A DNA stretch of 24,000 nucleotides from Candidatus Saccharimonadota bacterium. Its GTDB lineage: Bacteria > Patescibacteriota > Saccharimonadia > Saccharimonadales > JAGQNJ01. A program made the translations under genes and the position numbers. Where the stretch lies: positions 1-24,000 of the forward strand of contig JAGQMZ010000003.1 of assembly GCA_020428405.1 (NCBI GenBank), given 5' to 3'. Shown piece after piece: positions 9,552 to 23,104 of the stretch. The first letter of the stretch is position 1. Each line of letters opens with the position of its first letter. The notes beneath the pieces are model-generated. The model saw only the letters and a program-made list of their open reading frames with translations, was not told the origin of the DNA and did not search any database.

Positions 9552-9989
9552 ATGAATATGTTTAAAGGTGTTAAGGCAACAAATGTTGAAGAATATTTAG
9601 ATAATGTTCCGGCTGAGCGCAAAGACACTATTAATTTTTTACATCAGTTTATTCAAAAAGCTGCACCTGGCTTAAAGCCACATTTTGCTTACAATATGCT
9701 TGGCTACGGTAGTTTTAAGTACAAAAATTATAAAAAAGAGGATATGGATTGGCCGATTGTAGCACTGGCAAATCAAAAGAACTACGTGAGCGTGTATGTT
9801 TGTGCGGTTGACGGTGGTGAGTATATCGCAGAAAAGAATAAGAATAAACTAGGCAAGGTAAGCGTTGGTAAAAGCTGTATTAGGTTAAAAAAGTTAGAAG
9901 ACGTTAACTTAAATGAGCTAGAAAAAGTAATAAAATTAGCGGCTAAAAACCCGGGCCTGGTTGGCGCTGGAGAGCATAAAAACAAATAA
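9552..9989 (+). CDS. DUF1801 (YdhG-like) domain protein
   Basis: 145 aa. The pattern VEEYLDNVPAERKDTINFLHQFI...YGSFKYKN....WPIVALANQKNYVSVYV matches my recollection of the DUF1801 family. Confidence 0.65.
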   Translation: MNMFKGVKATNVEEYLDNVPAERKDTINFLHQFIQKAAPGLKPHFAYNMLGYGSFKYKNYKKEDMDWPIVALANQKNYVSVYVCAVDGGEYIAEKNKNKLGKVSVGKSCIRLKKLEDVNLNELEKVIKLAAKNPGLVGAGEHKNK

Positions 9990-10036
9990 CCGAAGTTTAA
10001 AAACCATAAGCACTGTAGTACAATTAGTAGCTAGTT

Positions 10037-10411
10037 ATGGCCGATAATAAAACAAAGCTTTCTAGTGGTGGAGAAACGCATGAGGTAACTAGGGATAGTT
10101 CATGGAGGAGTAGGTTTAAATCAAAACTCAATTCTTTTAGTTACCACCAAAAAGTATTAGTAGCTTTCATTGTAATTGGGGTTGTGGCCACACTAGGCTT
10201 TGCGATACTTATAGCCTTTGATACTTCAGATCAGGATAATGGACTTATACAGGTGGATAATCAGGAAATAGATCAAGCAACACTTGATCAAGCACTTGAG
10301 CAAGCTGAAAAAGACCCTTCATCAATCCCTTCTGGTGCATTCATGCCAGAATTAGGGGAAGATTACTTTACAGCCGATAGTAACGCAAGTGATACGGAGT
10401 CATTTCAGTAA
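10037..10411 (+). CDS. Module A small single-pass membrane protein (124 aa, acidic C-terminal ectodomain)
   Basis: ORF with one TM helix (VLVAFIVIGVVATLGFAILIAF). Its stop overlaps the next start as TAATG, indicating translational coupling. I recognise no family. Confidence 0.55.
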   Translation: MADNKTKLSSGGETHEVTRDSSWRSRFKSKLNSFSYHQKVLVAFIVIGVVATLGFAILIAFDTSDQDNGLIQVDNQEIDQATLDQALEQAEKDPSSIPSGAFMPELGEDYFTADSNASDTESFQ

Positions 10412-12549
10412 TGAATTATCAACACGGAGCTAAAAACATACTAGTTTCTAAAAGAAACATTATTTTAATTAGCTTAATTATTACATTAGCGATTCTGGCT
10501 GTAAGTGTTGTATTATCTGGGACTGCTTTTGCCAACGGAGCCGTTGGTACTGGCGGTAGTGGTAGTGGTGGTGGTACAGGTGGTGGTGGATACAATTCTA
10601 GGAATGGCTTTACGTGGGCTGCATATGATATTAATGGCCCAGGCCCAAGCGGGGGCTTTAGGAATGGTGCTTCTTGGGGATCTATTAGGTCTGTATGTCA
10701 AGGGGTAAACGCAGGTAGTATTAGTATTTATGTAATACGCAGTGCAAATACAAACCAATTTAGAGGATATAACTATAATCAAGATTGGAGTATAGGTAAA
10801 ATTGCTGATGGTTCTGTTATAGATGGTGGGAGAGCTACGGCAATTCCAAGCTACTGGGCTAGGGCTGCGTTTGATGCTTTGCCAGCAGCTGCGAAAGCAG
10901 GCTATACTTTTGGTGGATCAAATGGAAATGTATCTTGGCTTTGCACCGGCTTAGGTAATAATCCAAATCCTCAAGGCAGATCGCTATTTAGTTGTTCTCG
11001 TGGGTTTCAGGGATGGGCATTAGATGCAGATAACTTAAGTGCACGTCTTGGTGTTGCGGTATTAGTTAGGAGGAGTGGCACTACTGCGTGGAGTACATTA
11101 AGCCTTACTACTGCAAACCAGCCAATACCTGAACCGCCATTCAATAGATCAAATCTGGCCGCATTTGGTGTAAGTGGTAACCGTGGCTTTACGGTCTCAT
11201 TGCCAAGCTCGTATAGGGACAATCTATCTTATGATTGGATGATTATTGCGGCTAATGCAACTGGCACACCAGGTGCTCCAATTGCAAATATAACCCTTCT
11301 AGATGGAGCACCATTCAGTAGTTTTAGGTGTCCGACACCATGGGACGTAGGCGTAAATGTAAGCTGTGATGTAGATGCCGGTACAATAACCTTTTCGGTT
11401 TCAAAAACCGGAACCGTTCCAGGTAATGTGACTGTTACCAGAAGTGCAAGACTGACAAATCCTGTTCGTGCTTTAGCTCCTTCTTCTCCAGTAACTTTGA
11501 ACAACAGTCAAATACCATGGTCACAGACATATGACATAAATCCCCAGCCCGACCTTGGTCAGCATGTAGAGTCTAGTATATCTATTTCGCCCGGTGGCGC
11601 AGGAACTTCAAATAACACAAGTAACGATAGTGATAGTTGTAGTGATGGCCCCCGCACCGCCAAACCCTACCTCCGTGTATACGGCGGGGACGTAGTAACT
11701 GGTCTTGATTTCCAAGCATCTGATGGAACCTGCTCTGGTATAAAAGATACTACAGCAGGCATTAACGCCCATTCCAGAAATGCAGGGGGTAATCTAGTAG
11801 GTGCTGGCTCACAGTTTGCCACTAGTGCCGCCGGCCAAATCGTATCATTTATTTCTGCCGCTAACCACAACGGAGCAGCCTCAACTAATACAAGACCGTT
11901 TAAAGACTTAATGTTTAGTAATACTACATCTGGCAACTATGGTAATGACATAGGTGCCTACAGCGGCTGCCTGCCTGACTACTCTAAATTAATGGATACT
12001 ACTGGGGGTGCTAGTAGTTATACCCCGGGATCTACTATTGCAGCCAATAGCTCTGGCGGTATTCGTCGTTACCATGAAGGTAATCTTGACATAACAGGAG
12101 ACATTACATTACTACCATCACAAACCATTGATGCTGATAACGGCTTTGTTAACATCATTATTGTTAAAGGTGGCGACATACGTATAGCTCCAGTAGTAAC
12201 ACAAATAGATGCTTTGCTAGTGGCTATACCAGATGATTCTGGCAATGGCGGTACTATAGACACTTGTTACTTAAGTACAGTAGCAACCGGAGGCCCTTGT
12301 GTTAACAAACTAACCATAAATGGATCATTGGTTGCTAATAAGATAGAATTTGACCGTCTAGGTGGTGATTTACGAGATGCAGGTAGTGATGAAACGCCAG
12401 GCAGTGGCAGCATAGCCGAAGTCATCAACTACCCAGCTTACCTAAACTTTGTCTTTACAGGCCTAGTAGAAAATTCAGTACCAGCAGCCTCATCCCCACT
12501 TAACATAGGGGATTATGATAGTATTGCTGAATTACCGCCAGTTTTGTAG
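10411..12549 (+). CDS. Module A large secreted protein (712 aa): unique N-terminal region plus shared C-terminal domain
   Basis: Signal or anchor sequence with an AFA-NG cleavage-like site, then a Gly-rich linker (GTGGSGSGGGTGGGG). The C-terminal 289 aa, from AKPYLRVYGGDVVTG, are identical to those of the 13165-15177 product. I recognise no family. Confidence 0.75.
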   Translation: MNYQHGAKNILVSKRNIILISLIITLAILAVSVVLSGTAFANGAVGTGGSGSGGGTGGGGYNSRNGFTWAAYDINGPGPSGGFRNGASWGSIRSVCQGVNAGSISIYVIRSANTNQFRGYNYNQDWSIGKIADGSVIDGGRATAIPSYWARAAFDALPAAAKAGYTFGGSNGNVSWLCTGLGNNPNPQGRSLFSCSRGFQGWALDADNLSARLGVAVLVRRSGTTAWSTLSLTTANQPIPEPPFNRSNLAAFGVSGNRGFTVSLPSSYRDNLSYDWMIIAANATGTPGAPIANITLLDGAPFSSFRCPTPWDVGVNVSCDVDAGTITFSVSKTGTVPGNVTVTRSARLTNPVRALAPSSPVTLNNSQIPWSQTYDINPQPDLGQHVESSISISPGGAGTSNNTSNDSDSCSDGPRTAKPYLRVYGGDVVTGLDFQASDGTCSGIKDTTAGINAHSRNAGGNLVGAGSQFATSAAGQIVSFISAANHNGAASTNTRPFKDLMFSNTTSGNYGNDIGAYSGCLPDYSKLMDTTGGASSYTPGSTIAANSSGGIRRYHEGNLDITGDITLLPSQTIDADNGFVNIIIVKGGDIRIAPVVTQIDALLVAIPDDSGNGGTIDTCYLSTVATGGPCVNKLTINGSLVANKIEFDRLGGDLRDAGSDETPGSGSIAEVINYPAYLNFVFTGLVENSVPAASSPLNIGDYDSIAELPPVL
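11659..12525 (+). repeat. 867 bp perfect direct repeat, copy 1 (inside the 712 aa ORF)
   Basis: I compared it by eye, line by line, with 14287-15153 at an offset of 2628 bp and found no mismatch. The antisense ORFs in the track (11667-11936 vs 14295-14564, and 12069-12263 vs 14697-14891) are also identical. Confidence 0.95.
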
Positions 12550-12587
12550 GTAAATCATAAGCAGTATAGTACAATTTAAATAATTGT

Positions 12588-13178
12588 ATGAGTGAGTCAT
12601 CAACTGAACAACAAGGTAAAACTTTTATTGAGAAAAAGCCACCAAGCAAGTGGAAAAAAATTGCAAACTTTAAAGCTTATAGTAAAAAAAATAAAATATT
12701 AGCTGTGATAGCAGTTTTAATAATATTTTCTAGCGTAGTAAGTTTGATTGGTTATAAATATTGGCAATCAAGATATTACATTTCCCCAGAAGAAGAAGCA
12801 CTAGTTTTACAAGAAGCAAAAGATTTAATGATACAAGGTGACTTTGAAGCTGCCGATGCAAAATACCAATATTTAATTAGTAAAAAGTTATACAGCCAAG
12901 ACAAAGCAAATATATATCAAACTCAGTCAAAGCTTTGTGGTGATCTTAATAAGTATGACTGTAGCTTAACGGCATGGAAAAATTCTGGCCAACTTATTAA
13001 GCCTGACTATCAGTACTACTTAACGTTGGCAAATCTATTAAGTATAAACGGTGATGAATCAGGTAGCATTATTGCTTATCGACAAGCATATCAAAATATG
13101 GAAAATAACCTTGATTTAAGTGACGAGGATAAAGAATTAAAATCTGAATTAAAGGAGTACCTAAATGCTAACCAATAA
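12588..13178 (+). CDS. Module B small single-pass membrane protein with a TPR-like helical ectodomain (196 aa)
   Basis: One TM helix (ILAVIAVLIIFSSVVSLIGY), then helical-repeat-like sequence (AKDLMIQGDFEAADAKYQYLI..., YYLTLANLLSINGDESGSIIAYRQAYQ). It overlaps the next ORF by 14 nt and contains that ORF's RBS, AAGGAG (13153-13158). Confidence 0.6.
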   Translation: MSESSTEQQGKTFIEKKPPSKWKKIANFKAYSKKNKILAVIAVLIIFSSVVSLIGYKYWQSRYYISPEEEALVLQEAKDLMIQGDFEAADAKYQYLISKKLYSQDKANIYQTQSKLCGDLNKYDCSLTAWKNSGQLIKPDYQYYLTLANLLSINGDESGSIIAYRQAYQNMENNLDLSDEDKELKSELKEYLNANQ

Positions 13179-15177
13179 GATAAAGAAGTATCTTTTAATT
13201 TCATCGATTATGCTTGGTAGTTTTTTGGGAGTGATTATTGTAAATACATCTAATGCTGAAGCAGCCACCGTTTACATCCCTATGAGCTATAATAGTCCGT
13301 CGCCCGGGCTTTTAAATGCTTACAAGGATCGGCCGGGAACACCACAATATGCAATAGTTGGGCCAGCCACTACCTCTCGTGGTATATTGAATGAAAGGTA
13401 TAGTGAATCTTTATCTCCAGGTGCAAGGAATTTTATAAGACGAGTTTTTTCGGCTGAAGCTAGATTTAACATACCTCCTTGCGCATCAGGTTTATCTATA
13501 TCTATGACAGGTCTCGGGGGGAGTGGTGGGCAAAGCGTCTCTTTTAGAGGTTATTCTGGGCCAAGAGGTTCCGAGGGAGCATTTTACCCTCCCACATATG
13601 ACTGGCCTGAAGCTCGAGCTGATATCTGGAGTAATTCAAATGGTACTGGTCTATTGGCAACTTCCTTTGCCCCCGCTTTAGCAGATATTGGCCCAGGTGA
13701 TACTGTAACATTTTCGTCATCTTCTTTTAGCCCAAGTAATGTATACATAACTCCTGCTGATTTAAGTAACGGTATTACCTTTTCTTTTTGGGTAGAGACG
13801 TTTGACCAGCTTAGTAATCAAGGTTTATTTGGTATTGGCAGGCAATGGAGCTTTAATTTGACTGGAAGTCCGTTTCTAAGAGTAACCTATAATACTGACA
13901 GCTGCCCATCATTCAATTTAAATGCCAATATAGATATTGATCGTAACACTGGTGACGTTGACTTTTCGTCATACAACAGTGGGAATGGAGCCTCACGTTT
14001 TAGCGATGGTGCCGGCGCACGCGTAATTCGACAAGTCTGGGTGAATGGTGCTCCTCAACTTTCTGGTTCTAATAACACCTCTAGAGAGATAATTAATCCT
14101 AGTGCAAACTGGCAAGATAACTGGTCTGGAGCTTCTGTCCTTCCTGGTGATGTAATATGTGCTGAACTTACAGTTGGTCCAAGGTCTGGGTTAACTGACT
14201 TTGCAGTTTTTAGCGAGCCCCCATCTCCGCTTACAAATCAATACGCTCACCAAGGAGGCTTAAATGTAAACTGTGTTACTAATGTTGCCAAACCCTACCT
14301 CCGTGTATACGGCGGGGACGTAGTAACTGGTCTTGATTTCCAAGCATCTGATGGAACCTGCTCTGGTATAAAAGATACTACAGCAGGCATTAACGCCCAT
14401 TCCAGAAATGCAGGGGGTAATCTAGTAGGTGCTGGCTCACAGTTTGCCACTAGTGCCGCCGGCCAAATCGTATCATTTATTTCTGCCGCTAACCACAACG
14501 GAGCAGCCTCAACTAATACAAGACCGTTTAAAGACTTAATGTTTAGTAATACTACATCTGGCAACTATGGTAATGACATAGGTGCCTACAGCGGCTGCCT
14601 GCCTGACTACTCTAAATTAATGGATACTACTGGGGGTGCTAGTAGTTATACCCCGGGATCTACTATTGCAGCCAATAGCTCTGGCGGTATTCGTCGTTAC
14701 CATGAAGGTAATCTTGACATAACAGGAGACATTACATTACTACCATCACAAACCATTGATGCTGATAACGGCTTTGTTAACATCATTATTGTTAAAGGTG
14801 GCGACATACGTATAGCTCCAGTAGTAACACAAATAGATGCTTTGCTAGTGGCTATACCAGATGATTCTGGCAATGGCGGTACTATAGACACTTGTTACTT
14901 AAGTACAGTAGCAACCGGAGGCCCTTGTGTTAACAAACTAACCATAAATGGATCATTGGTTGCTAATAAGATAGAATTTGACCGTCTAGGTGGTGATTTA
15001 CGAGATGCAGGTAGTGATGAAACGCCAGGCAGTGGCAGCATAGCCGAAGTCATCAACTACCCAGCTTACCTAAACTTTGTCTTTACAGGCCTAGTAGAAA
15101 ATTCAGTACCAGCAGCCTCATCCCCACTTAACATAGGGGATTATGATAGTATTAGCGAGCAGCCACCTATTTTGTAA
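13165..15177 (+). CDS. Module B large secreted protein (670 aa): unique N-terminal region plus shared C-terminal domain
   Basis: Signal peptide (LLISSIMLGSFLGVIIVNTSNAEA-AT). The N-terminal 375 aa or so show at most faint similarity to module A. The C-terminal 289 aa are identical to module A, and the last 7 aa diverge again (SEQPPIL vs AELPPVL). Confidence 0.75.
   Translation: MLTNKIKKYLLISSIMLGSFLGVIIVNTSNAEAATVYIPMSYNSPSPGLLNAYKDRPGTPQYAIVGPATTSRGILNERYSESLSPGARNFIRRVFSAEARFNIPPCASGLSISMTGLGGSGGQSVSFRGYSGPRGSEGAFYPPTYDWPEARADIWSNSNGTGLLATSFAPALADIGPGDTVTFSSSSFSPSNVYITPADLSNGITFSFWVETFDQLSNQGLFGIGRQWSFNLTGSPFLRVTYNTDSCPSFNLNANIDIDRNTGDVDFSSYNSGNGASRFSDGAGARVIRQVWVNGAPQLSGSNNTSREIINPSANWQDNWSGASVLPGDVICAELTVGPRSGLTDFAVFSEPPSPLTNQYAHQGGLNVNCVTNVAKPYLRVYGGDVVTGLDFQASDGTCSGIKDTTAGINAHSRNAGGNLVGAGSQFATSAAGQIVSFISAANHNGAASTNTRPFKDLMFSNTTSGNYGNDIGAYSGCLPDYSKLMDTTGGASSYTPGSTIAANSSGGIRRYHEGNLDITGDITLLPSQTIDADNGFVNIIIVKGGDIRIAPVVTQIDALLVAIPDDSGNGGTIDTCYLSTVATGGPCVNKLTINGSLVANKIEFDRLGGDLRDAGSDETPGSGSIAEVINYPAYLNFVFTGLVENSVPAASSPLNIGDYDSISEQPPIL
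14287..15153 (+). repeat. 867 bp perfect direct repeat, copy 2 (inside the 670 aa ORF)
   Basis: Identical to 11659-12525. Identity begins at GCCAAACCCTACC and ends at ...GATAGTATT in both copies. Confidence 0.95.
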
Positions 15178-15193
15178 AAAGAAAAAAGCAGTA

Positions 15194-15220
15194 TTGCATA
15201 CAAAATGCTTATGCTATAAT
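15194..15220 (+). promoter_or_regulatory. Promoter of the pilM operon: TTGCAT-N15-(TGc)TATAAT
   Basis: TTGCAT at 15194-15199, an extended -10 TG at 15212-15213 and TATAAT at 15215-15220. The pilM ATG lies 10 nt after the -10 box, with no SD. Confidence 0.5.
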
Positions 15221-15230
15221 CAGACATAAC

Positions 15231-16268
15231 ATGAGCTTATTAACTGGTGTTTCTGACTTTTTTGGCCTAGACATCGGTACCACAGCAGTAAGACTAGTAG
15301 AATTACGAGGGGGTGGGCCGGTAAAACCATTGGTGCGTTACGGATATGTGCCAATTGATATTCGTTTGGCAGTAAGTGACTCTAAGCCTGATCAGCAAAA
15401 AACGGCTCAGGTGTTAAAAGATTTATTAGTACAATCTAAGGTTACAAGCAGAAATGTAGTTGTTGGTATTCCGTCACAAAGAGTTTTTACTACGCTTGTT
15501 GATATAGACAAACTAGAAGGTGACGAGCTTGATAAATCTATTAAGCTTCAGGTTGATTCAATAATACCTACGCAAGCTTCTGAATCTAAGATTGATTGGG
15601 TTGTGCTTGGTGATTCACCGAAAGATCAAAATAAAGTAGAAATTTTACTAACAAGCGTTCCTAATGAGTACGTTGAGGGAAGGTTAGATATGTTGGAGTC
15701 AATAGGCCTTAATGTTATTGCTTTTGAGCCGGATAACATTGCTCTAACCAGATCTTTAGTTGCGCCAGACGCCACGTTGCCGCAAATGGTGGTCGATGTT
15801 GGTCAGAATAGTACGGATATAGTTATAACTATGAATGGCGCACCAAGACTAACTAGATCAATTCCCACAGGAGCGGGGGCAGTTGTGAAGGCTGCCATGC
15901 AAAACTTAAATATTGATGAACAACAAGCTCACCAATTTGTGTATAAGTTTGGTCTTAGCCAGGATAGGCTTGAGGGCCAGATATACAACGCGGTAATTAG
16001 TACGGTTGATATTATGGAGGCTGAGCTAGAAAAATCTATAAAATTCTTTGCAAATAGGTATCAAACACAAATTGAAAGAATTATTGTATCTGGTGCAGCA
16101 TCAGTAATGCCAGATTTGCCAGCCTATATTGCAAATAAGACAGGACTAAGTGTAGAAATAGGTAATGCTTGGCGAAATGTTAGCGTAGGCTCAGCCCAGC
16201 AAAATGATTTAATGGCGCTATCACCATATTTTGGGGTAGCAGCAGGTTTAGCGGAGAGAAATGAATAA
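15231..16268 (+). CDS. pilM: Type IV pilus assembly protein PilM (actin-like ATPase fold)
   Basis: 345 aa. FGLDIGTTAVRLVEL is the N-terminal actin-fold phosphate motif. The gene sits first in a pilMNO-pilBTC cluster. Confidence 0.85.
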   Translation: MSLLTGVSDFFGLDIGTTAVRLVELRGGGPVKPLVRYGYVPIDIRLAVSDSKPDQQKTAQVLKDLLVQSKVTSRNVVVGIPSQRVFTTLVDIDKLEGDELDKSIKLQVDSIIPTQASESKIDWVVLGDSPKDQNKVEILLTSVPNEYVEGRLDMLESIGLNVIAFEPDNIALTRSLVAPDATLPQMVVDVGQNSTDIVITMNGAPRLTRSIPTGAGAVVKAAMQNLNIDEQQAHQFVYKFGLSQDRLEGQIYNAVISTVDIMEAELEKSIKFFANRYQTQIERIIVSGAASVMPDLPAYIANKTGLSVEIGNAWRNVSVGSAQQNDLMALSPYFGVAAGLAERNE

Positions 16269-16978
16269 TGGTTCAATTCAATTTATTACCAGATGTAAAA
16301 CTAGAGTATGTTAAAACACAAAGGACTAAGCGGCTAGTTATATTTGGTGCACTTGGTGTTACAGGTATTTGTGTATTTATACTTGTTTTGCTATTTATGC
16401 TAGTAAATGTATTTCAAAGACAACATATAGGTAATTTGAATGACGACATCAAACAATATACAGCTGATTTAGAAAAAGTACCCGAGTTAGACGAAGTTCT
16501 TACTATACAGAACCAACTAAACGTATTGAATGGATTACACGAACAAAAACCTGCAGCACAGCGAATATACGATTACCTTGTACAGTTAACACCTTCAGAT
16601 GCCAAACTATCTGAAGTCTCTATAAATTATGAGGAAAACACCATTTCACTTAGTGGGTCAGCAACTAGCCTACAAGTTATAAATAAATTTGTTGATACCG
16701 TAAAATTTACTGAATATCAGTATGATGATGCAAAAGACCGTGCGTTTTCAAATGTAGTACTATCTAGTTACGGAATTAGCGAGAGTGACTCTGCTCAAGA
16801 AAGAACATCTTACACCATTGATCTTATATACGATCCAGTGATATTTGATAACACAAAAGCTGTTACACTTGTTGTTCCACCAATTATATCTACTAGATCC
16901 ATAACCGAAAAGCCACAAGACTTATTTGAGCCAAAGCCTATAGAAAATCCTATAGATGGAAACGGAGGAACTCAATAA
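16268..16978 (+). CDS. pilN: Type IV pilus assembly protein PilN-like
   Basis: The N-terminal FNLLPD motif (the PilM-binding INLLP-type peptide) is followed by a single TM helix. It has TAATG coupling with pilM. Confidence 0.75.
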   Translation: MVQFNLLPDVKLEYVKTQRTKRLVIFGALGVTGICVFILVLLFMLVNVFQRQHIGNLNDDIKQYTADLEKVPELDEVLTIQNQLNVLNGLHEQKPAAQRIYDYLVQLTPSDAKLSEVSINYEENTISLSGSATSLQVINKFVDTVKFTEYQYDDAKDRAFSNVVLSSYGISESDSAQERTSYTIDLIYDPVIFDNTKAVTLVVPPIISTRSITEKPQDLFEPKPIENPIDGNGGTQ

Positions 16979-17649
16979 TGGCAAAAAGTGCAGGCACAGG
17001 AAAAAGAGACCTAATAGGCAAGACAAACTCAAAAATGGTTGCTACTGTTGCCATAGCAGCTTTCTTGAGCGTATTTTCTTTAATTGCAGCTAGAGCTTTA
17101 TGGAGTCAAAGAGGCTATCAGTCTAGAGTGATAGGAGAAAAAGAAAAAGCCGTAAGTCAGCTTGAAGAAAATATAAAAGCAGTTGAAGAGCTTGAGGTAT
17201 CTTATAGAGCATTTGTAGAAACGCAAGATAATGTTATTGGTGGTAACTCTCAAGCTCTTGGCGATCGTGATGGTGATAATGCAAAAATTGTGCTAGATGC
17301 ATTGCCGAGCAAGTATGATTACCCGGCTCTTATAACCAGTATGGAGAAGTTGCTTGCAGAAAATAACTTTACTCTAAAGTCAATTGGTGGCCAAGATGAT
17401 GAAATCGCTCAAGCAGAATCAAGTTCAGCAGAGCCAGTCATGGTTCCGTTTAGCTTAACTAGCGAGGTCGGTAATTACGTCCGTGTAAATGAACTATTAC
17501 AAACTCTTTACCGTTCAATCAGGCCAATACACTACAAGAATTTAAATATTAGTGGTAGTGGAGAGTCTGCCTTGGAGGTTAGTGTAGACGGGTTTACGTA
17601 CTATCAGCCTTCAAAAGAGTTCAAGGTAGATACAAAGGTGGTTAAGTAA
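16978..17649 (+). CDS. pilO: Type IV pilus assembly protein PilO-like
   Basis: 223 aa with one TM helix, a coiled-coil segment (EKEKAVSQLEENIKAVEELE) and a position after pilN. It has TAATG coupling with pilN. Confidence 0.65.
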   Translation: MAKSAGTGKRDLIGKTNSKMVATVAIAAFLSVFSLIAARALWSQRGYQSRVIGEKEKAVSQLEENIKAVEELEVSYRAFVETQDNVIGGNSQALGDRDGDNAKIVLDALPSKYDYPALITSMEKLLAENNFTLKSIGGQDDEIAQAESSSAEPVMVPFSLTSEVGNYVRVNELLQTLYRSIRPIHYKNLNISGSGESALEVSVDGFTYYQPSKEFKVDTKVVK

Positions 17650-17886
17650 ATGAAACAAAAAGACATAGCACTTATAATAGTAATCTCATTTATATCTGGC
17701 ATACTTTCTTTCTTTCTAACTAATTTGCTCATTACAAACCCAGAGAACAGGCAAGAAGAAGTAGAAGTTGTAGAACCTATATCAAGCACATTTACAGAAC
17801 CAGATACCAGATATTTTAACGCTGAAGCTATTAACCCAACTCAACTTATACAAATTGGTAATCAAGATAATCAACAGCCTCTTTAG
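17650..17886 (+). CDS. Small single-pass membrane protein in the pilus operon (78 aa)
   Basis: Its ATG follows directly after the pilO stop. It has one TM helix (IALIIVISFISGILSFFLTNLLI) and a Gln/Asn-rich tail. I recognise no family. Confidence 0.5.
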   Translation: MKQKDIALIIVISFISGILSFFLTNLLITNPENRQEEVEVVEPISSTFTEPDTRYFNAEAINPTQLIQIGNQDNQQPL

Positions 17887-17904
17887 TGGTGGGAGCGTGA
17901 GCTC

Positions 17905-19722
17905 ATGAGCGTGTTATCTACCGAAGTACAAAAAAAGGTTGAGAAAGCCATAGTTGATCAAGGCTTGTTGACAGCACAAAAAATTGCCCAACTAAAAGAT
18001 AAGGCTGACAATGACAATACTCCTTTCTTTTCACTTTTAATTAAAGAAGATAACATTTCTGACGAATTGCTGACAAAGATGACTGCTAGCGCCTCGGGCG
18101 TGCCCTATGTTAATCTTTCTAATGCTAAAATTAAAGCACAAGTATTACAGTTGCTCCCATATGAAATGGCTGAACGGTATATGGCTGTGCCTTTGGGGGA
18201 GATGGAGCACAGATTGGTTGTTGCAATGCTTGATTCTGATAACGTTCAAGCTATAGATTTTTTGTCTAATAAAATCGGTAGACCCATACGTGTATTTGCC
18301 GCAAGTGAATCAGGTATCAGGCACGTTCTTATGCAATACAAGACTGCTTCAAAGCCAGGAATGACCAACGCCTATGAAGAAGCAAGTACTGGAATTGAAA
18401 TACCAGAAGAATTTAAACGTGCGGCAAGAGCCGAACAAGCTGAACAAGACCAATCTAATCAGGCTATAAAAACCCTGTCTCAAGATTCACCAATAAGCAA
18501 AGTTTTATCAGCCATTTTAGAATATGCAGCCAATAATGGAGCTAGTGATATTCATATAGAGCCTACAGAAAAAGACTTAAGAATTAGGTGTAGAATTGAC
18601 GGTGTATTGCGTGAAATCATGAGGTTGCCCAAATCAACAGAACCACCGCTAGTTTCTCGCGTAAAGATACTAGCTAGTCTTAAGATTGATGAGCATAGGT
18701 TGCCACAAGATGGTCAATTTACCGTAAGTGTGGCTGATAAAAGTATTGATTTGCGTATAGCTATATCTCCTGTTGTTTGGGGCGAGCAGGTTGTTATTCG
18801 ATTACTTGATAAGTCTGGCACAAGCTTAAAATTAGAGGATATGGGCTATAAAGGGAGGGCGCTAAGATCAATCAGAGGAGCTCTTCAAAGTCCTAATGGA
18901 ATGGTATTAACATCTGGCCCAACTGGCTCTGGTAAGTCAACCTCTATGTACGCTTTACTGCAAGAAATTAAAAACGACACAATAAATATTGTAACTCTTG
19001 AAGACCCTGTTGAGTACAAAATGAACGGCATTAACCAAATACAAGTTAATACAGATATTGGCTTAACTTTTGCATCAGGCCTTCGTTCTGTACTTAGGCA
19101 GGACCCTAATGTTGTTATGGTAGGTGAGATTCGTGACAAAGAAACCGCTACACTAGCTGTACAGGCTGCATTAACTGGCCACTTAGTGTTTTCTACACTT
19201 CATACAAACTCAGCTGCTGGTATTTTGCCAAGACTGCTAGATATGGGCATAGAGCCTTTTTTGATAGCTTCAACTGTACGTACAGTTATTGGCCAGCGTC
19301 TTGTTAGAAGATTAGCTGATGGGGCAGAACAGTATCAATCTAATAGTGCAGAAGTACAAGCAATTAACAAGGTTCTAGGTAGTATGCTGCCTAAAACTAA
19401 GCAAGACGTTCCAAAAATTGCCGAGGATCTTGGGTATAAAACCTTGCCTATGCAGGGTCAAAACGCTTATACTTTATTTAAGGGCAAAGAAACTGCCTCT
19501 GCACCTGGTGGCTATAAAGGAAGAATGGGCTTGTACGAGGTCTTTGATGTAACGCCAGAGATCCAGCAACTTATTCTAAAGCGCGCTACTAGTAGTGAAA
19601 TTCAAAAACTAGCCATTCAACAGGGGATGGTAAGTATGCGCCAAGACGGATACTTAAAAGCGCTAGCTGGCCACACTACATTATCAGAAGTTGATAGAGT
19701 AGCTGCAGAGGATAGTGCCTAA
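17905..19722 (+). CDS. pilB: Type IV pilus assembly (extension) ATPase PilB / GspE family
   Basis: 605 aa. It has a T2SSE_N-like N-terminal domain, Walker A GPTGSGKST, an Asp box (TLEDPVEY), Walker B (VVMVGEIRD) and a His box (TGHLVFSTLHTN). Confidence 0.92.
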   Translation: MSVLSTEVQKKVEKAIVDQGLLTAQKIAQLKDKADNDNTPFFSLLIKEDNISDELLTKMTASASGVPYVNLSNAKIKAQVLQLLPYEMAERYMAVPLGEMEHRLVVAMLDSDNVQAIDFLSNKIGRPIRVFAASESGIRHVLMQYKTASKPGMTNAYEEASTGIEIPEEFKRAARAEQAEQDQSNQAIKTLSQDSPISKVLSAILEYAANNGASDIHIEPTEKDLRIRCRIDGVLREIMRLPKSTEPPLVSRVKILASLKIDEHRLPQDGQFTVSVADKSIDLRIAISPVVWGEQVVIRLLDKSGTSLKLEDMGYKGRALRSIRGALQSPNGMVLTSGPTGSGKSTSMYALLQEIKNDTINIVTLEDPVEYKMNGINQIQVNTDIGLTFASGLRSVLRQDPNVVMVGEIRDKETATLAVQAALTGHLVFSTLHTNSAAGILPRLLDMGIEPFLIASTVRTVIGQRLVRRLADGAEQYQSNSAEVQAINKVLGSMLPKTKQDVPKIAEDLGYKTLPMQGQNAYTLFKGKETASAPGGYKGRMGLYEVFDVTPEIQQLILKRATSSEIQKLAIQQGMVSMRQDGYLKALAGHTTLSEVDRVAAEDSA

Positions 19723-19734
19723 AATAAGAAAGCG

Positions 19735-20814
19735 GTGGGAAGAAATATGGAATCACAACCAAGAATAGAATTACTACTAGAAGAAGTTGTAAAGCGTAAA
19801 GCATCAGATCTTCACCTTCAAGTAGGCTTGACGCCAATGCTAAGAATTGACGGTAAGCTTACACCAACACCTGGCACTCAGGTATTGAACGAAGAAGCTG
19901 TAGAGGCTTTGGTTTTTTCTATCCTGGATGAAGACCAAAAACAAATTTTGCTTAAAGATAAAGAGTTTGATTTCAGTTTTGCCTTTGGTGATCTTGGCCG
20001 GTTTCGTGTAAATGCTTTCCATGAGCGTGGTAATCTTGCGGCAGCCTTGCGTTTAATTCCTAACGAGCTATTAAGTGTAGAGCAGCTAGGCTTGCCAACC
20101 GTTGTAAATAAATTTGCCCAGCATCCTAGGGGTCTTGTGCTTGTAACTGGGCCAACTGGTTCTGGTAAGTCCACTACTTTGGCGGCTCTTGTAGATAAAA
20201 TCAATAGCGAGCGAGCGGAACACATTATTACTATTGAAGATCCAATTGAATTTACTCATAAATCTAAGAAGTCTGTTGTTGTACAAAGAGAAGTCCACTA
20301 CGATACTTATTCGTTCTCGGCAGCTCTGCGTAGTACCTTGCGTGAAGACCCAGATGTAGTGCTTATTGGCGAGATGCGAGACCTAGAGACTATAGCCTCG
20401 GCAATTACTATTGCCGAAACGGGCCATTTAGTTTTTGCAACGCTTCATACCAACTCGGCAGCGCAGAGTATCGACCGTATGATTGACGTATTTCCACCGC
20501 ATCAACAACCGCAAATCAGGGCTCAGCTTTCTAACATATTAATGGCAATTTGTTCACAGAGGTTGATTCCTTCAATCGGTGGCGGGCGTGTAGCGGCAGC
20601 AGAAATTTTAATAGCAACACCTGCCGTAAGAAACATTATCCGTGAGGGCAAGAGCCACCAGCTAGAGGCTGTTATTCAAACAGGTGCAGAGTTTGGCATG
20701 CAATCTATGGATAAAACACTGGTAGAACTTATTCATTCAGGAACAATTACGTACGACGAAGCTCGCAATTATGCCGTTGATCTAGGGGAATTAGACAGGT
20801 TAATGAGGGGTTAA
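19735..20814 (+). CDS. pilT: Twitching-motility (retraction) ATPase PilT
   Basis: It has Walker A GPTGSGKST, TIEDPIEF, LIGEMRD, TGHLVFATLHTN and a PilT-type AxRNxIRE motif (PAVRNIIREGK). The start could instead be the ATG at 19747 (MESQPRIELL...). Confidence 0.92.
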   Translation: MGRNMESQPRIELLLEEVVKRKASDLHLQVGLTPMLRIDGKLTPTPGTQVLNEEAVEALVFSILDEDQKQILLKDKEFDFSFAFGDLGRFRVNAFHERGNLAAALRLIPNELLSVEQLGLPTVVNKFAQHPRGLVLVTGPTGSGKSTTLAALVDKINSERAEHIITIEDPIEFTHKSKKSVVVQREVHYDTYSFSAALRSTLREDPDVVLIGEMRDLETIASAITIAETGHLVFATLHTNSAAQSIDRMIDVFPPHQQPQIRAQLSNILMAICSQRLIPSIGGGRVAAAEILIATPAVRNIIREGKSHQLEAVIQTGAEFGMQSMDKTLVELIHSGTITYDEARNYAVDLGELDRLMRG

Positions 20815-20818
20815 ATGA

Positions 20819-22033
20819 ATGTTAACGTTTAAGTATACGGCACGAGACCCGGCAACTAAGAAGAAAATTATAGCAGAAGTAGATGCAGATAACGAAAAAT
20901 CCGCAGCAAAAATTATTCGCGATCAAGGCCTTATTCCGGTTTCGGTAACGGCAAATAAAGAGGGTGGACTGTTTTCTAAGTTTAAGAATCGCATTAGCAC
21001 AAAAGATAAAGTATTGTTTTCTCGCCAACTTTCAACACTTATAAATGCGGGATTGCCATTAGTGCAATCTTTGCGCAATGTATCTGGGCAAACTCAAAAT
21101 AAAGCTTTTCAGGCAGTTATTGCTAAAATTATTACTGATATTGAGGCAGGCAGTAGCTTTCATGAAGCGCTAGCTAAGCACCCCAAAGTATTTAATGACG
21201 TCTTTGTAAACTTAGTTGCAGCAGGTGAGGCCTCGGGTACCCTAGATAAAGCGCTTGCCCGTTTAGCAGACCAGCAAGAAAAAGACGCCGAGATTGTTCG
21301 CAAAATTCGCGGTGCTATGGTTTATCCAGTTATTGTTCTTGTAGTAATGGTTGCTGTGGTTGGTTTTATGATATTAACCGTAATGCCACAGGTAGAAAAA
21401 ATATACGCAGACTTACCGGGGGCCAGCTTACCGTTAATAACGCGTGTTCTTATTGCTATAGCAAACTTTACAACCAAATATTGGTGGATTGTCTTAATAG
21501 CATTAGCACTTACGGCATTTTTTACTACCAGATGGGCAAGAAGCTTAGGTGGTAAAGAAGCAATAGACAAAGCAAAGATGAGAATGCCCGTTTTTGGCCC
21601 ACTATTTATGAAGGTTTACATGGCTCGTTTTACCAGAACGGGTGCAACATTAGTAGCAAGCGGCGTTCCACTTATACAAATGCTAGAGATTGTAGGTAGA
21701 GCTATAAATAATATTCACCTTGAACGTTCAATAAATAAAATCATAGAAAAGGTAAAAGGTGGTAAGGCCCTATCAGAGTCTATAAAGGGTGACGATAACT
21801 TTTTAACCTTAGTTCCAGACATGATTAGAATAGGTGAACAATCGGGCTCTTTAGAGGATATGTTAGAGCGTACAGCGGAGTATTATGAAAAGGAAGTAGA
21901 CCAACAAATAAAGACCATCTCGACAATTATAGAGCCTATATTAATGGTTTTGCTTGGTGTTGTTGCATTCGGTATTGTTGCCGCCGTGTTATTGCCAGTT
22001 TACGGATTAGTAAATCAGACTAATATTGTTTGA
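20819..22033 (+). CDS. pilC: Type IV pilus platform protein PilC (GspF family)
   Basis: 404 aa with two GspF-type repeats (FSRQLSTLINAGLPLVQSL and FTRTGATLVASGVPLIQML) and three TM segments. Confidence 0.92.
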   Translation: MLTFKYTARDPATKKKIIAEVDADNEKSAAKIIRDQGLIPVSVTANKEGGLFSKFKNRISTKDKVLFSRQLSTLINAGLPLVQSLRNVSGQTQNKAFQAVIAKIITDIEAGSSFHEALAKHPKVFNDVFVNLVAAGEASGTLDKALARLADQQEKDAEIVRKIRGAMVYPVIVLVVMVAVVGFMILTVMPQVEKIYADLPGASLPLITRVLIAIANFTTKYWWIVLIALALTAFFTTRWARSLGGKEAIDKAKMRMPVFGPLFMKVYMARFTRTGATLVASGVPLIQMLEIVGRAINNIHLERSINKIIEKVKGGKALSESIKGDDNFLTLVPDMIRIGEQSGSLEDMLERTAEYYEKEVDQQIKTISTIIEPILMVLLGVVAFGIVAAVLLPVYGLVNQTNIV

Positions 22034-22138: not shown

Positions 22139-22612
22139 ATGTTACAAAAATATAAAGATAAGAAAGACCAGGGATTCACCATCATCGAGGTGTTGATTGT
22201 GCTTGCCATAGCTGGCCTAATCATCTTGATTGTGTTCTTGGCCGTACCTGCGCTTCAGCGTAACTCACGTAATACGCAGCGCCGAAACGACGTCAGCGCA
22301 ATATTGGGCTCAATTCAAGAGTTTTCCAACAATAATGGAGGCGATTTACCGACCGCTACTGATAAGTCAACAGTTCTAGCGAATGCCGAACGAGGCATAT
22401 ATGAAGATGATGCTGCGATATCAATTAGTGGCTCAGTGCCAACAGCTCCAGCTGATGCATCAACACAACTTGAAACAGTTGATATCATCACTGGCGGTAC
22501 TTGCAGTAGCCCAACGACCGCCACTACAACGGGTGCGAGCAGCAGAGAGGTTGCCATCCGCTTCTGGGTAGAAACTTCAGGCGCACCTCAGGAACAATGT
22601 CAAGCTAGCTAA
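22139..22612 (+). CDS. pilA: Type IV pilin (probable major pilin)
   Basis: It has a class III signal peptide, a 12 aa leader ending in G and then FTIIEV (Glu at +5), followed by the hydrophobic helix LIVLAIAGLIILIVFLAV. A C-terminal Cys pair (C121, C154) brackets a Thr/Ser-rich patch. It has its own promoter, a strong RBS and a strong terminator. Confidence 0.9.
   Translation: MLQKYKDKKDQGFTIIEVLIVLAIAGLIILIVFLAVPALQRNSRNTQRRNDVSAILGSIQEFSNNNGGDLPTATDKSTVLANAERGIYEDDAAISISGSVPTAPADASTQLETVDIITGGTCSSPTTATTTGASSREVAIRFWVETSGAPQEQCQAS
22194..22278 (+). repeat. 85 bp perfect direct repeat, copy 1 (pilin N-terminal helix coding region)
   Basis: Identical to 22764-22848 at an offset of 570 bp. 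The flanks on both sides are mismatched. Confidence 0.9.
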
Positions 22613-22708: not shown

Positions 22709-23104
22709 GTGCAAATTAATAACAACAAACGGGGCAATAATGCGTTTACTATCATAGAAGTTATGATTGTGCTTGCCATAGCTGGCCTAATCATCTTGAT
22801 TGTGTTCTTGGCCGTACCTGCGCTTCAGCGTAACTCACGTAATACGCAAAGAAAAGAAGGAATGTCTCTTGTTGTTTCTGCTTTTAAAGAGTGCTTGCGA
22901 AACCACCATAATAAGATTAGCAGCAATTGTGATTCTGAAACGCTCATGACGTCGTATATTACTTTTGATGAGCTAAAGATGTTTACTGGATATACATTTC
23001 CAAATCCAACATTAGATGAGTTTAACTCTGTAGATGGCGTATGTAGTGACACTAAGACTGACGTTGTGCCGGTGGCAGTAGGTCATTTTCGTACCTATAT
23101 TTAA
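22709..23104 (+). CDS. Type IV pilin paralogue (second, atypical pilin)
   Basis: GTG start. A 12 aa leader ends in Ala (KRGNNA) and is followed by FTIIEV and the same hydrophobic helix as pilin 1. The C-terminal domain is unrelated and has three Cys. Confidence 0.75.
   Translation: MQINNNKRGNNAFTIIEVMIVLAIAGLIILIVFLAVPALQRNSRNTQRKEGMSLVVSAFKECLRNHHNKISSNCDSETLMTSYITFDELKMFTGYTFPNPTLDEFNSVDGVCSDTKTDVVPVAVGHFRTYI
22764..22848 (+). repeat. 85 bp perfect direct repeat, copy 2
   Basis: Identical to 22194-22278. Confidence 0.9.

Follow-up and report, generated by a model that had tools for sequence, protein, structure and literature searches.

Tandem gene pairs heading a Saccharibacteria type IV pilus operon are candidate modules for host grip

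How ultrasmall epibiotic bacteria find and hold on to their hosts is an open question. The experimental record so far comes from a small number of oral strains, of which at least S. epibionticum lacks, at the equivalent slot, the genes considered here. We analysed a 24,000-nucleotide stretch of DNA from a Candidatus Saccharimonadota bacterium (contig JAGQMZ010000003.1; hereafter the window), in which two tandem gene pairs lie directly upstream of a type IV pilus operon. The original prediction was that these pairs encode alternative pilus-associated adhesins. Are they part of the pilus system at all, and if so, what could they contribute to it?

All four open reading frames were found on the forward strand where they had been placed. 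Module A consists of a small partner, sA (10037-10411; 124 aa), and a large protein, LA (10411-12549; 712 aa), while module B consists of sB (12588-13178; 196 aa) and LB (13165-15177; 670 aa). Both have the pair architecture that had been described, a small single-pass membrane protein followed by a signal-peptide-bearing protein of about 700 aa, and both are translationally coupled as proposed, through a TAATG at the sA stop and LA start and a 14-nt overlap of sB and LB. The modules do abut pilM, which starts at 15231 after a gap of 53 nt from the LB stop codon. In both small proteins a single hydrophobic helix is seen, around residue 41 of sA and residue 37 of sB. LA and LB both begin with a hydrophobic segment followed by an AxA site (AFA at residues 39-41 of LA and AEA at residues 31-33 of LB, as read from the sequence), and the predicted signal peptides are a Sec-type one of residues 1-41 in LA, cleaved at AFA↓N, and one of residues 1-33 in LB, cleaved at AEA↓A. 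Residues F40 and A41 of the AFA site are invariant among LA orthologues. The prepilin motif G↓FTxxE was not found in LA or LB, in contrast to the pilins of the same locus.

Beyond its signal peptide (1-41), LA comprises a Gly-rich linker, an A-type N-terminal region, an Ig-like domain (~308-412) and a conserved C-terminal domain (417-712); in LB, after the signal peptide (1-33), a B-type N-terminal region leads into a second copy of this C-terminal domain (375-670). The combined Gly, Ala, Ser and Thr content of the large proteins is 39-42% (41.7% in LA), compared with 27-29% for PilB and PilM; together with the PA14, PKD or CARDB domains that a few relatives carry at their N-termini, this argues for a location outside the cell. 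On sequence comparison, A and B are separate orthologue types, each of which is kept in other genomes. Full-length LA orthologues occur at 36-52% identity, and LB has a full-length orthologue in locus L003 (32% identity over 725 columns) and a further one, P0015, in L006.

The modules also share a 20-nt element on the forward strand ahead of the small genes, with one copy, CATAAGCACTGTAGTACAAT, at 10005-10024 and the other, CATAAGCAGTATAGTACAAT, at 12556-12575. Each copy ends 13 nt before the start of its small gene, sA or sB, so the distance to the ATG is equal in both, and these are two matches in the window where none would be expected by chance. The core of the element also stands 12 nt ahead of the B-type small gene in L006, and a promoter-like site is predicted at 9996-10024. 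It may be a promoter, with TACAAT as the -10 box, or else a regulatory site, in either case common to both modules.

The large proteins belong to an unnamed family whose size, as determined by a full HMMER search, is 5,404 clusters at 50% identity; word-indexed homologue searches returned 14, 4 and 2 matches and missed most members. Cluster representatives range from 340 to 1,383 aa, and nearly all match the C-terminal part of the profile only. The variable N-terminal and conserved C-terminal organisation originally noted in the window thus holds as a family pattern, with hypervariable N-termini and a C-terminal domain of ~300 aa conserved across the family. This domain has conserved cysteines (LA residues 441, 520, 619 and 630) and three invariant residues (Asp427, Arg649 and Glu670), and AlphaFold2 modelled LA residues 300-712 with a pLDDT of 85.6. 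The full-length LA model, built from an 11-sequence alignment, was poor (pLDDT 53) and was used only to note the Ig-like domain. In keeping with the original statement that no family could be recognised, none of LA, LB, sA and sB exceeded a Pfam or NCBIfam threshold, and a PDB sequence profile search with the large-protein family returned no match. Foldseek matched only the Ig-like part to PDB folds and found nothing for the C-terminal domain. Homology to a family unrelated to pili, which would have spoken against the prediction, was therefore not found in the Pfam, NCBIfam, PDB sequence or fold searches.

These searches also bear on the idea that the large proteins are secreted enzymes or toxins, for example degraders of host cell walls or polysaccharides, tied to the pilus genes by co-regulation only. 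A beta-rich secreted protein with conserved acidic residues would suit such a role, and PA14, present on one relative, is a domain also seen in glycosidases. However, Pfam, NCBIfam, PDB sequence and Foldseek searches brought up no catalytic family, and the combination of a conserved C-terminal domain and tail with a freely varying N-terminus suggests a docking module rather than a catalytic core. Since an enzyme or toxin would also leave the obligatory membrane partner unexplained, we regard this reading as very improbable.

Within the window, the C-terminal domains are nearly the same sequence. An 868-nt direct repeat on the forward strand (11659-12526 and 14287-15154; 100% identity, offset 2,628 nt) begins at the first conserved family motif, AKPYLRVYG, and its identity is far beyond chance. 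The repeat covers the conserved C-terminal domain: LA and LB agree at 99% of residues over their C-terminal 296 aa, while comparison of their N-terminal halves revealed no similarity. The similarity ends abruptly at both edges of the repeat, and the final 8 codons of LA and LB differ. Because A-type and B-type C-termini are only about 49-62% identical in L003, where both types are present, the identity of LA and LB is the result of recent gene conversion. The conserved C-terminus seen in this particular pair is, in other words, the product of conversion between two distinct paralogue types, a qualification that the original prediction did not contain. Which 8-codon tail belongs to which copy is ambiguous from the assemblies, since in further public assemblies of this organism (L086 and L087) the sequence runs out of the repeat into the other flank.

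The same process is seen at other loci. Between paralogues, identity over the C-terminal domain is 99% in the window, 100% in L005, 80% in L057 and 70.5% in L077, and in each case the paralogues are closer to one another than to the best match in any other locus. L005, from a distant lineage, has an independent exact repeat of 1,325 nt in the same arrangement. These comparisons indicate that tandem copies repeatedly homogenise their C-termini by gene conversion. An assembly artefact as the sole cause of the 868-nt identity was considered and is unlikely, given the L005 repeat and the graded homogenisation elsewhere.

The extreme C-terminus of the family is strongly conserved. The last 11 residues follow a nearly invariant consensus, Y-D-x-I-x-x-L-P-P-V/I-L-COOH, with 2-4 bits at each position compared with at most 1.1 bits just upstream (240 family members). 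LA ends in YDSIAELPPVL-COOH (12514-12546, forward strand), the proposed docking peptide, and LB in YDSISEQPPIL-COOH (15142-15174, forward strand), with an unusual Gln at position -5; the QPPIL ending occurs in only 2 of the 240 sequences. A variable linker rich in Ser, Thr, Gly and Pro precedes the tail, which always stands at the very end of the protein. In the otherwise confident AlphaFold2 model, the last 19 LA residues have pLDDT values below 50, and a disordered tail beside a confident domain would suit a peptide that takes up its fold on binding a partner. With its two prolines, LPP(V/I)L is not an obvious beta-strand. A sortase, PEP-CTERM or similar sorting signal was rejected, since nothing follows the motif, neither a transmembrane segment nor a charged tail.

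What, then, is the partner? The gene neighbourhood points to the pilus. On the forward strand downstream of the modules, the window contains pilM, pilN and pilO of the pilus alignment complex (15231-17649; PilM_2, PF11104, E=6.5e-34, with weak PilN and PilO matches), a conserved 78-aa membrane ORF followed by pilB, pilT and pilC (17650-22033; Pfam annotations of orthologues), a pair of prepilin genes (22139-22612; 22709-23104) and, from 23292 to the window end, the first part of pilD, which encodes the prepilin peptidase. In related loci the minor-pilin set comes next, past the window end. No terminator-like site was found on the forward strand in the interval from the modules to pilM.

Co-occurrence with pilMNO-pilBTC in other genomes had been suggested as a check on the prediction, and the linkage proved to be very strong. 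Among the 72 Saccharibacteria loci with at least 1.5 kb of downstream DNA (in a scan that used a trimmed alignment), pilM lies no more than 900 nt downstream on the same strand in 68, with a median gap of 84 nt. The gene order pilM-pilN-pilO-78aa-pilB-pilT-pilC follows the module in essentially all related loci, and these ychF-pilM slots hold one to three family copies each. Two of the three family copies that do not adjoin pilM lie beside a gene for a PilX_N minor pilin: the extra copy in L049 comes after a minor-pilin set that ends in such a gene, and the isolated copy in L070 adjoins one whose product is 39% identical to the PilX_N protein of L049. On the other hand, the module is not at the ychF-pilM slot of cultivated oral S. 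epibionticum, even though the T4P1 genes of this species are essential, indicating that the module is an accessory rather than a core part of the pilus. The 13-gene T4P-1 locus of TM7x (TM7x_00415-00475), as described, likewise has no such module (PMC11623550).

The second recurrent neighbour is the small membrane protein, present upstream of 88 of the 90 family genes as an ORF of ~120-210 aa, mostly with a 4-nt overlap; 86 of these upstream partner ORFs have one transmembrane helix. TPR families were matched by 26 of 40 partner proteins from other loci (best E about 1e-12), and the proline-peptide-binding TPR_P4H model by two partners. The partners are very divergent, with a mean column identity of 20% and no invariant column. 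In sB, a Lys-rich N-tail and a transmembrane helix (near 37-56) are followed by a helical outside domain of ~140 aa, which is probably a divergent TPR (TPR_2 match at E=0.059, below threshold); its orthologue in L003 is 32% identical. In sA, a basic N-tail and a transmembrane helix (near 39-61) are followed by a short acidic outside tail. No TPR domain was found in sA or its orthologues (in L001 and L003, at 39-40% identity), and its SurA_N_3 match falls below threshold (E=4.5e-5, 23.8 bits versus a cut-off of 27.2); sA can be taken as a shortened partner-family protein that lacks the TPR repeats. The program jackhmmer places sA and sB in one family, though such matches are inflated by transmembrane helices and a small database. 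Two long members of the large-protein family, P0123 and P0143, have a transmembrane helix and a SurA_N-like chaperone region fused at the N-terminus (SurA_N scores of 23.7 and 19.5 bits, respectively, below threshold but with a convincing local pattern).

A TPR protein as partner is reminiscent of the PilF, PilW and Tgl pilotins. This likeness, and the position of the module at the head of pilMNO, where machine genes sit, would be consistent with a structural or assembly part of the single-membrane pilus machine, such as a wall-spanning collar, an exit structure or an envelope-remodelling factor, that takes the place of PilP/PilQ and the TPR pilotin of double-membrane bacteria; the invariant Asp427, Arg649 and Glu670 could be functional in such a part. 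Most of the small partners match TPR families, and like these pilotins they would be small non-cytoplasmic helpers of a pilus component. However, PilF, PilW and Tgl are outer-membrane lipoproteins that serve the secretin, whereas the partners here are bitopic, with a basic N-tail and no lipobox, and no secretin was found in the window or in related loci. A secretin and pilotin reading was rejected on these grounds. TfcP, the helper of Myxococcus PilY1.1, is another small non-cytoplasmic helper, but is a cytochrome-c-like protein. A machine part is also hard to reconcile with an S. epibionticum pilus that is essential and functional while its slot lacks the module, with one to three copies and hypervariable N-termini, which are unlike a core component, or with the lack of a match to any machine family. 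We consider a role of this kind improbable.

A different possibility is that the large proteins form an adhesin complex on the cell surface, separate from the pilus, in which the small membrane protein anchors the large one and the cell body displays the variable N-terminus. Extended C-terminal or proline-rich peptides are common ligands of TPR domains, and the tail could bind the TPR partner instead of a pilin. The TPR domain would then, for example, grip LPP(V/I)L-COOH. Co-expression with the pilus would follow from a division of labour in which pilus retraction brings the cells into contact and this adhesin then makes the close bond. The nearly universal pairing with a bitopic TPR protein and the two TPR_P4H matches fit this picture, as does an S. 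epibionticum pilus that works without the module. The P0123 and P0143 fusions, being membrane-anchored, would tether the large protein unless cleaved, so for them a cell-surface location fits better than a pilus tip. The TM7x study itself proposes separate close-range surface adhesins that act after pilus retraction (PMC11623550), with which this reading agrees. Against it, the partners are very divergent while the tail is nearly invariant, and sA and its orthologues have no TPR domain with which to grip the tail. It would also leave unexplained both the PilX_N neighbours of the extra copies and the ~84 nt spacing to pilM across the phylum. On balance, we think it rather unlikely.

We favour the reading in which each module supplies an accessory surface protein of the retractile T4P-1 pilus together with its own membrane-anchored helper, as an analogue rather than a homologue of PilY1/PilC, although we rate its chances as slightly short of even. 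From genomic context and architecture, we infer that the large proteins may be on the pilus, at its tip, and adhesive. In this model, the large protein would be exported by Sec and cleaved by signal peptidase I. The co-translated small partner, with its N-terminus inside and its TPR domain (SurA_N-like in some relatives) outside, would hold or chaperone it at the membrane. The C-terminal domain of ~300 aa, and above all the terminal peptide, would then dock onto a conserved pilus component, the likeliest target being, by analogy with PilC/PilY1 (PMC12918778), the PilX_N (PilK/GspK-like) minor pilin of the priming or tip complex. The hypervariable N-terminal half would point outwards and serve in adhesion or host recognition. 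Paralogues in tandem, like A and B, would supply alternative N-terminal domains, while gene conversion keeps the docking domains identical, presumably so that both fit one machine. Against this model, the gene sits upstream of pilM, outside the minor-pilin operon, the two-proline tail is hard to see as a beta-strand, and the S. epibionticum pilus can work with no module at the slot.

The original prediction is thus partly supported. The parallel that it drew with PilC/PilY1 gained strength from the family-wide architecture, the cysteines, the near-invariant tail and the PilX_N neighbours of two copies. Homology, which had not been claimed, was tested and not found: the PilY1 beta-propeller domain (PF05567) had no match in LA or LB at E up to 1, nor in 45 family members. 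PDB sequence and fold searches gave no match to it either, and we do not place the large proteins in the PilY1 family. Judged from their sequences, the modules are built like PilY1/PilC tip adhesins yet unrelated to them. PilC/PilY1 and MshQ are exported by Sec and signal peptidase I, contain disulfides, and combine a conserved C-terminus with N-termini that are diverse. In PilC/PilY1 the last ~10 residues complement the PilK-family pilin and so hold the protein on the PilK/PilX minor pilin (PMC12918778); for systems without PilY1, the same paper reports an extra C-terminal strand on the pilin itself. Like PilY1 and PilC1/PilC2, the tip adhesins of type IVa pili in Pseudomonas, Neisseria and Myxococcus, the large proteins are non-pilins with Sec/signal peptidase I export (here read from sequence), a diverse N-terminal region, a conserved C-terminal domain with conserved cysteines, and a conserved extreme C-terminal peptide; both are encoded in a pilus gene cluster and have paralogous copies with homogenised C-termini. 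The modules differ in lying upstream of pilM, ~7 kb before the pilins, whereas pilY1 follows pilX in the minor-pilin operon, in providing a membrane TPR partner for each copy, in serving an organism without an outer membrane or secretin, and in being dispensable in some lineages.

Other systems provide precedents for parts of the favoured model. MshQ (MSHA) and CpaL/TadG (Tad) are also large tip-complex proteins for which an extreme C-terminal strand is proposed or shown to act in assembly, and they are not PilY1 homologues (PMC12918778); they are thus a precedent for unrelated proteins that use the same docking principle. MshQ differs in being encoded directly after pilIJK homologues, and CpaL in having its own pilin-like N-terminal domain, whereas the large proteins studied here begin with a cleavable signal peptide instead of a pilin-like segment. 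Candidate host- or glycan-binding pilus parts in single-membrane bacteria include PilX1/PilX2 of the Saccharibacteria strain TM7x (Nanosynbacter lyticus; PMC11623550) and the modular minor pilins PilB/PilC of Streptococcus sanguinis. All of these have the hydrophobic N-terminal helix and the fold of a pilin, to which a lectin or propeller domain is added at the C-terminus, while the large proteins of the modules are non-pilins that vary at the N-terminal end.

Taken together, the module pairs are good candidates for the means by which Saccharibacteria epibionts grip their hosts. In its fullest form, our proposal is of an undescribed class of new-fold pilus-tip adhesins outside the well-studied oral clade, docking through YDxIxxLPPV/IL-COOH, each with its own membrane TPR chaperone, and with host-recognition N-terminal halves that recombination in the ychF-pilM slot exchanges or multiplies on a constant docking domain; we put this forward as possible but less likely than not. 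A family of thousands that heads a retractile-pilus operon provides a testable host-range candidate in environmental Saccharibacteria, and metagenomes can be mined with two simple markers, the 11-residue tail and the ychF-pilM slot. If the proposal is true, the slot would be a host-range locus of episymbiotic CPR bacteria, and the tail would be a further independent case of the terminal-peptide docking recently shown for PilC/PilY1, in favour of the view that the principle is a general one. It would also show how non-pilin adhesins are mounted by single-membrane bacteria.

The window is a segment of a Saccharibacteria (TM7) chromosome carrying S6-SSB-S18, EF-P, a TlyA/FtsJ methyltransferase, a beta-lactamase-like gene and a bPH gene on its plus strand, a Crp-type regulator and ychF on its minus strand, and a complete retractile type IV pilus cluster (pilM, pilN, pilO, a 78-aa ORF, pilB, pilT, pilC, two prepilins and the start of pilD). 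This gene order recurs in genomes labelled Candidatus Saccharibacteria or Saccharimonadales, both MAGs and complete ones. Two tandem modules, each a small membrane partner followed by a large protein, lie between ychF and pilM: sA (10037-10411, 124 aa) with LA (10411-12549, 712 aa), and sB (12588-13178, 196 aa) with LB (13165-15177, 670 aa). On rechecking, the ORF boundaries in the original prediction, the TAATG overlap in module A and the 14-nt overlap in module B were all correct, as were the single hydrophobic helix of sA and of sB, the hydrophobic N-terminal segment and AxA site of LA and of LB, and the abutment on pilM (a gap of 53 nt). None of the four proteins, for which no family had been recognised, reached a Pfam/NCBIfam threshold.

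Other features of the window also deserve mention. On the minus strand, an ORF (3-1469) extends beyond the start of the window, and related loci have ftsK at this place; its product, of at least 489 aa, is a cell-wall-associated protein, given its transmembrane anchor, PG_binding_4 and DUF3152. The 78-aa ORF between pilO and pilB (17650-17886) encodes one N-terminal hydrophobic helix, has no family assignment and keeps its position in essentially every related locus; its Southlakia epibionticum counterpart, SEML1_0107, has an essential score in Tn-seq. The tandem prepilin genes (22139-22612 and 22709-23104) have near-identical N-terminal helices (FTIIEV[L/M]IVLAIAGLIILIVFLAVPALQRNSRNTQR) and different globular parts, the second having a GTG start and, ahead of the predicted cleavage site, Ala in place of Gly; a single major pilin stands in related loci where the window has these two.

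LA and LB belong to a large family. While word-indexed searches returned only about 15 relatives, a full HMMER search against 1.84 billion cluster representatives returned 5,404 with E<=1e-3, of which 2,711 had E<=1e-30. Lengths range from 342 to 1,383 aa among the best 150 of the 5,404, and almost all of these align only to the last 300-420 profile positions, which comprise an Ig-like domain and the C-terminal domain. Four cysteines of the C-terminal domain are invariant or nearly so, and the most conserved part of the protein is its extreme C-terminus: across 240 sequences, the terminal 11 residues read Y-D-[S/Y/A]-I-[T/V]-[S/G]-L-P-P-[V/I]-L-COOH at 2-4 bits per position, as against at most 1.1 bits per position in the S/T/G/P-rich stretch just upstream. 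N-terminal regions mostly lack a recognisable domain (among 45 members, PA14 was found in 1, PKD in 2, CARDB in 1 and a PBP-C Ig-like domain in 1). The GAST content is 39-42%, versus 27-29% in PilB and PilM, and falls in the range of the highest-scoring pilins in a study of TM7x (PMC11623550). A modular minor pilin, of the type of TM7x PilX1 and PilX2 or that of S. sanguinis, is ruled out by the absence of a pilin N-terminus. A secreted enzyme or toxin is very improbable; the beta-rich fold and conserved acidic residues would suit one, and positive support ends there. The papers on Saccharibacteria pili that were consulted, and a literature search, yielded no description of the family; the family and its fold are judged to be new, and the principle that they use is probably a known one.

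The predicted organisation, with a variable N-terminus and a conserved C-terminus, is borne out by LA and LB, whose N-terminal halves have no detectable similarity and whose last 296 residues are 99% identical. At the DNA level, 11659-12526 equals 14287-15154 exactly over 868 nt, and the similarity ends abruptly, at the AKPYLRVYG codons on the upstream side and 8 codons short of the stop on the downstream side. The two modules represent separate orthologue groups, A-type and B-type, with full-length orthologues of each of LA, sA, LB and sB in other genomes; in one of these (locus L003), the C-terminal parts of the A and B large proteins share about 49-62% identity. The 100% identity in the window is therefore a recent conversion tract, which starts where homology starts. 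In locus L005, which belongs to a distant Saccharibacteria lineage, an exact direct repeat of 1,325 nt (11074-12398 and 15254-16578) spans the C-terminal 441 aa of both tandem family genes, an independent instance of paralogue homogenisation. In three further loci the paralogous C-termini (80%, 70.5% and 60% identical in L057, L077 and L063, respectively) are in each case closer to one another than to any sequence of another locus. Two sequences from other public assemblies of the window's organism, a 3,223-nt ENA scaffold and a 2,649-nt Logan contig (99.9-100% identity to window 10243-16093), exit the 868-nt repeat oppositely to the window assembly: the scaffold reads LA N-terminus, repeat, LB tail, pilM, and the contig LB N-terminus, repeat, LA tail, sB. 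The two arrangements reflect either true recombinants, formed by deletion or expansion via the direct repeat, or assembler ambiguity across it.

A 20-nt element, CATAAGCA[C/G]T[G/A]TAGTACAAT, for which no occurrence is expected by chance, is present in the window at 10005-10024 and 12556-12575, in both cases ending exactly 13 nt 5' of the ATG of the small gene. Its core is also found in locus L006 (9418-9433), 12 nt before a B-type small gene, so that the duplicated unit consists of element, small gene and large gene. The element may be a module promoter or operator.

To place the family in its genomic context, a locus scan at one genome per species gave 112 relatives, from which 79 distinct loci were kept; nearly all are Saccharibacteria, and the few otherwise labelled share the same synteny. 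The Pil proteins of the window served as queries against the ORFs called in every locus. Downstream DNA of 1.5 kb or more is available for 72 non-redundant loci; in 68 of them, the last family gene is followed by pilM at a distance of no more than 900 nt (median gap 84 nt), in agreement with the proposed co-occurrence with pil genes; as the loci were collected from the family side and not from pilM, these data tie the family to the pilus cluster and not the reverse. The slot between ychF and pilM holds one copy in 38 loci, two in 7 and three in 1. Downstream of pilM follow pilN-pilO-78aa-pilB-pilT-pilC and then the major pilin, PilD and a minor-pilin set, which in L049, where the DNA reaches its end, comprises four genes with PilX_N (PF14341) last. 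Of the four exceptions, L042 has a short family-like gene ending INLPPVL that adjoins pilM after all; L049 has a second copy at the opposite end of its pilus cluster, right behind the minor-pilin set; the copy in L070 is isolated and lies next to a PilX_N gene that shares 39% identity with that of L049; and L071 shows no pilus neighbour.

The slot also accepts unrelated insertions, since a DUF1801 gene lies between ychF and module A in the window (9552-9989) and is absent there in L001, L003 and L006. L005 has transposase and recombinase genes in the slot, and a further gene pair stands upstream of the family modules in L003 (5598-9240, 473+738 aa) and L006 (6176-9358, 286+772 aa). BLASTP shows no similarity between the L003 pair and the modules, and the large genes of both pairs give no score with the C-terminal-domain HMM; such a pair may be another kind of surface module.

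In strain ML1 of the cultivated oral species S. epibionticum, pilM (SEML1_0104) begins 12 nt after ychF (SEML1_0103), and the 13-gene T4P1 locus has no room for a module (PMC10633639); the T4P-1 locus of TM7x likewise has 13 genes (PMC11623550). As most T4P genes of S. epibionticum, T4P1 included, score essential (PMC10633639, main text and Table S1), the module is accessory and not a core part of the machine.

An upstream same-strand ORF of about 120-210 aa precedes 88 of 90 family genes, overlapping the large gene by 4 nt in most cases, and 86 of the 88 encode a single N-proximal transmembrane helix. TPR families are matched by 26 of 40 partners (best E about 1e-12), and their basic N-tails point to an outward-facing TPR domain. 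sB is a divergent member of this TPR group, while sA and its orthologues are truncated, lack the TPR domain and, in sA, show a SurA_N_3 match just below threshold. Two long family members, P0123 (1,383 aa) and P0143 (1,352 aa), start with a transmembrane helix and a SurA_N/PpiD-like chaperone region, and look like fusions of partner and large protein; together with the sA match, they suggest that the partner acts as a chaperone or holder. A pilotin is ruled out, since a secretin is absent and the partner is no lipoprotein. That the pairing is universal, that the fusions are membrane-anchored and that the pilus can dispense with the module would all be expected if the large protein were a cell-body adhesin tethered by the small partner, whose TPR domain would bind the proline-containing tail. 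This main rival is rather unlikely, given that partners are very divergent, the sA type has no TPR and PilX_N genes occur as neighbours. Less likely still is a component of the machine or of wall passage, which gene position and the TPR analogy would fit, but against which stand the varying copy number, the hypervariable N-termini and the absence from S. epibionticum.

The original prediction likened the modules to the tip adhesins PilC and PilY1, which are Sec/SPase I proteins that contain several disulfides and combine a conserved C-terminal domain with N-terminal adhesin regions of diverse kinds, and whose roughly 10 extreme C-terminal residues complete a PilK/PilX minor-pilin beta-sheet, locking them onto the tip/priming complex; the large, unrelated MshQ and CpaL appear to dock likewise (PMC12918778). 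This parallel holds for the logic, of which every sequence-level element is reproduced by the family, and for the link to a pilus cluster; it fails as homology, since neither sequence nor fold comparison found the domain that defines PilY1/PilC. The family is also tied, through its stray copies, to PilX_N genes. Quite possibly, and more likely than on any rival reading, the module is a functional analogue of PilY1/PilC. In such an analogue the large protein would be exported via Sec and held by its membrane TPR or SurA_N-like partner; its constant C-terminal domain and tail would dock onto the minor-pilin complex, the presumed target, displaying the variable N-terminal binding region, putatively at the tip and for adhesion. 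Conversion would keep the docking domains of paralogues compatible with one machine. For environmental Saccharibacteria the family offers a concrete candidate for what determines host range, and with it an extension of the terminal-peptide docking principle to single-membrane bacteria can be tested.
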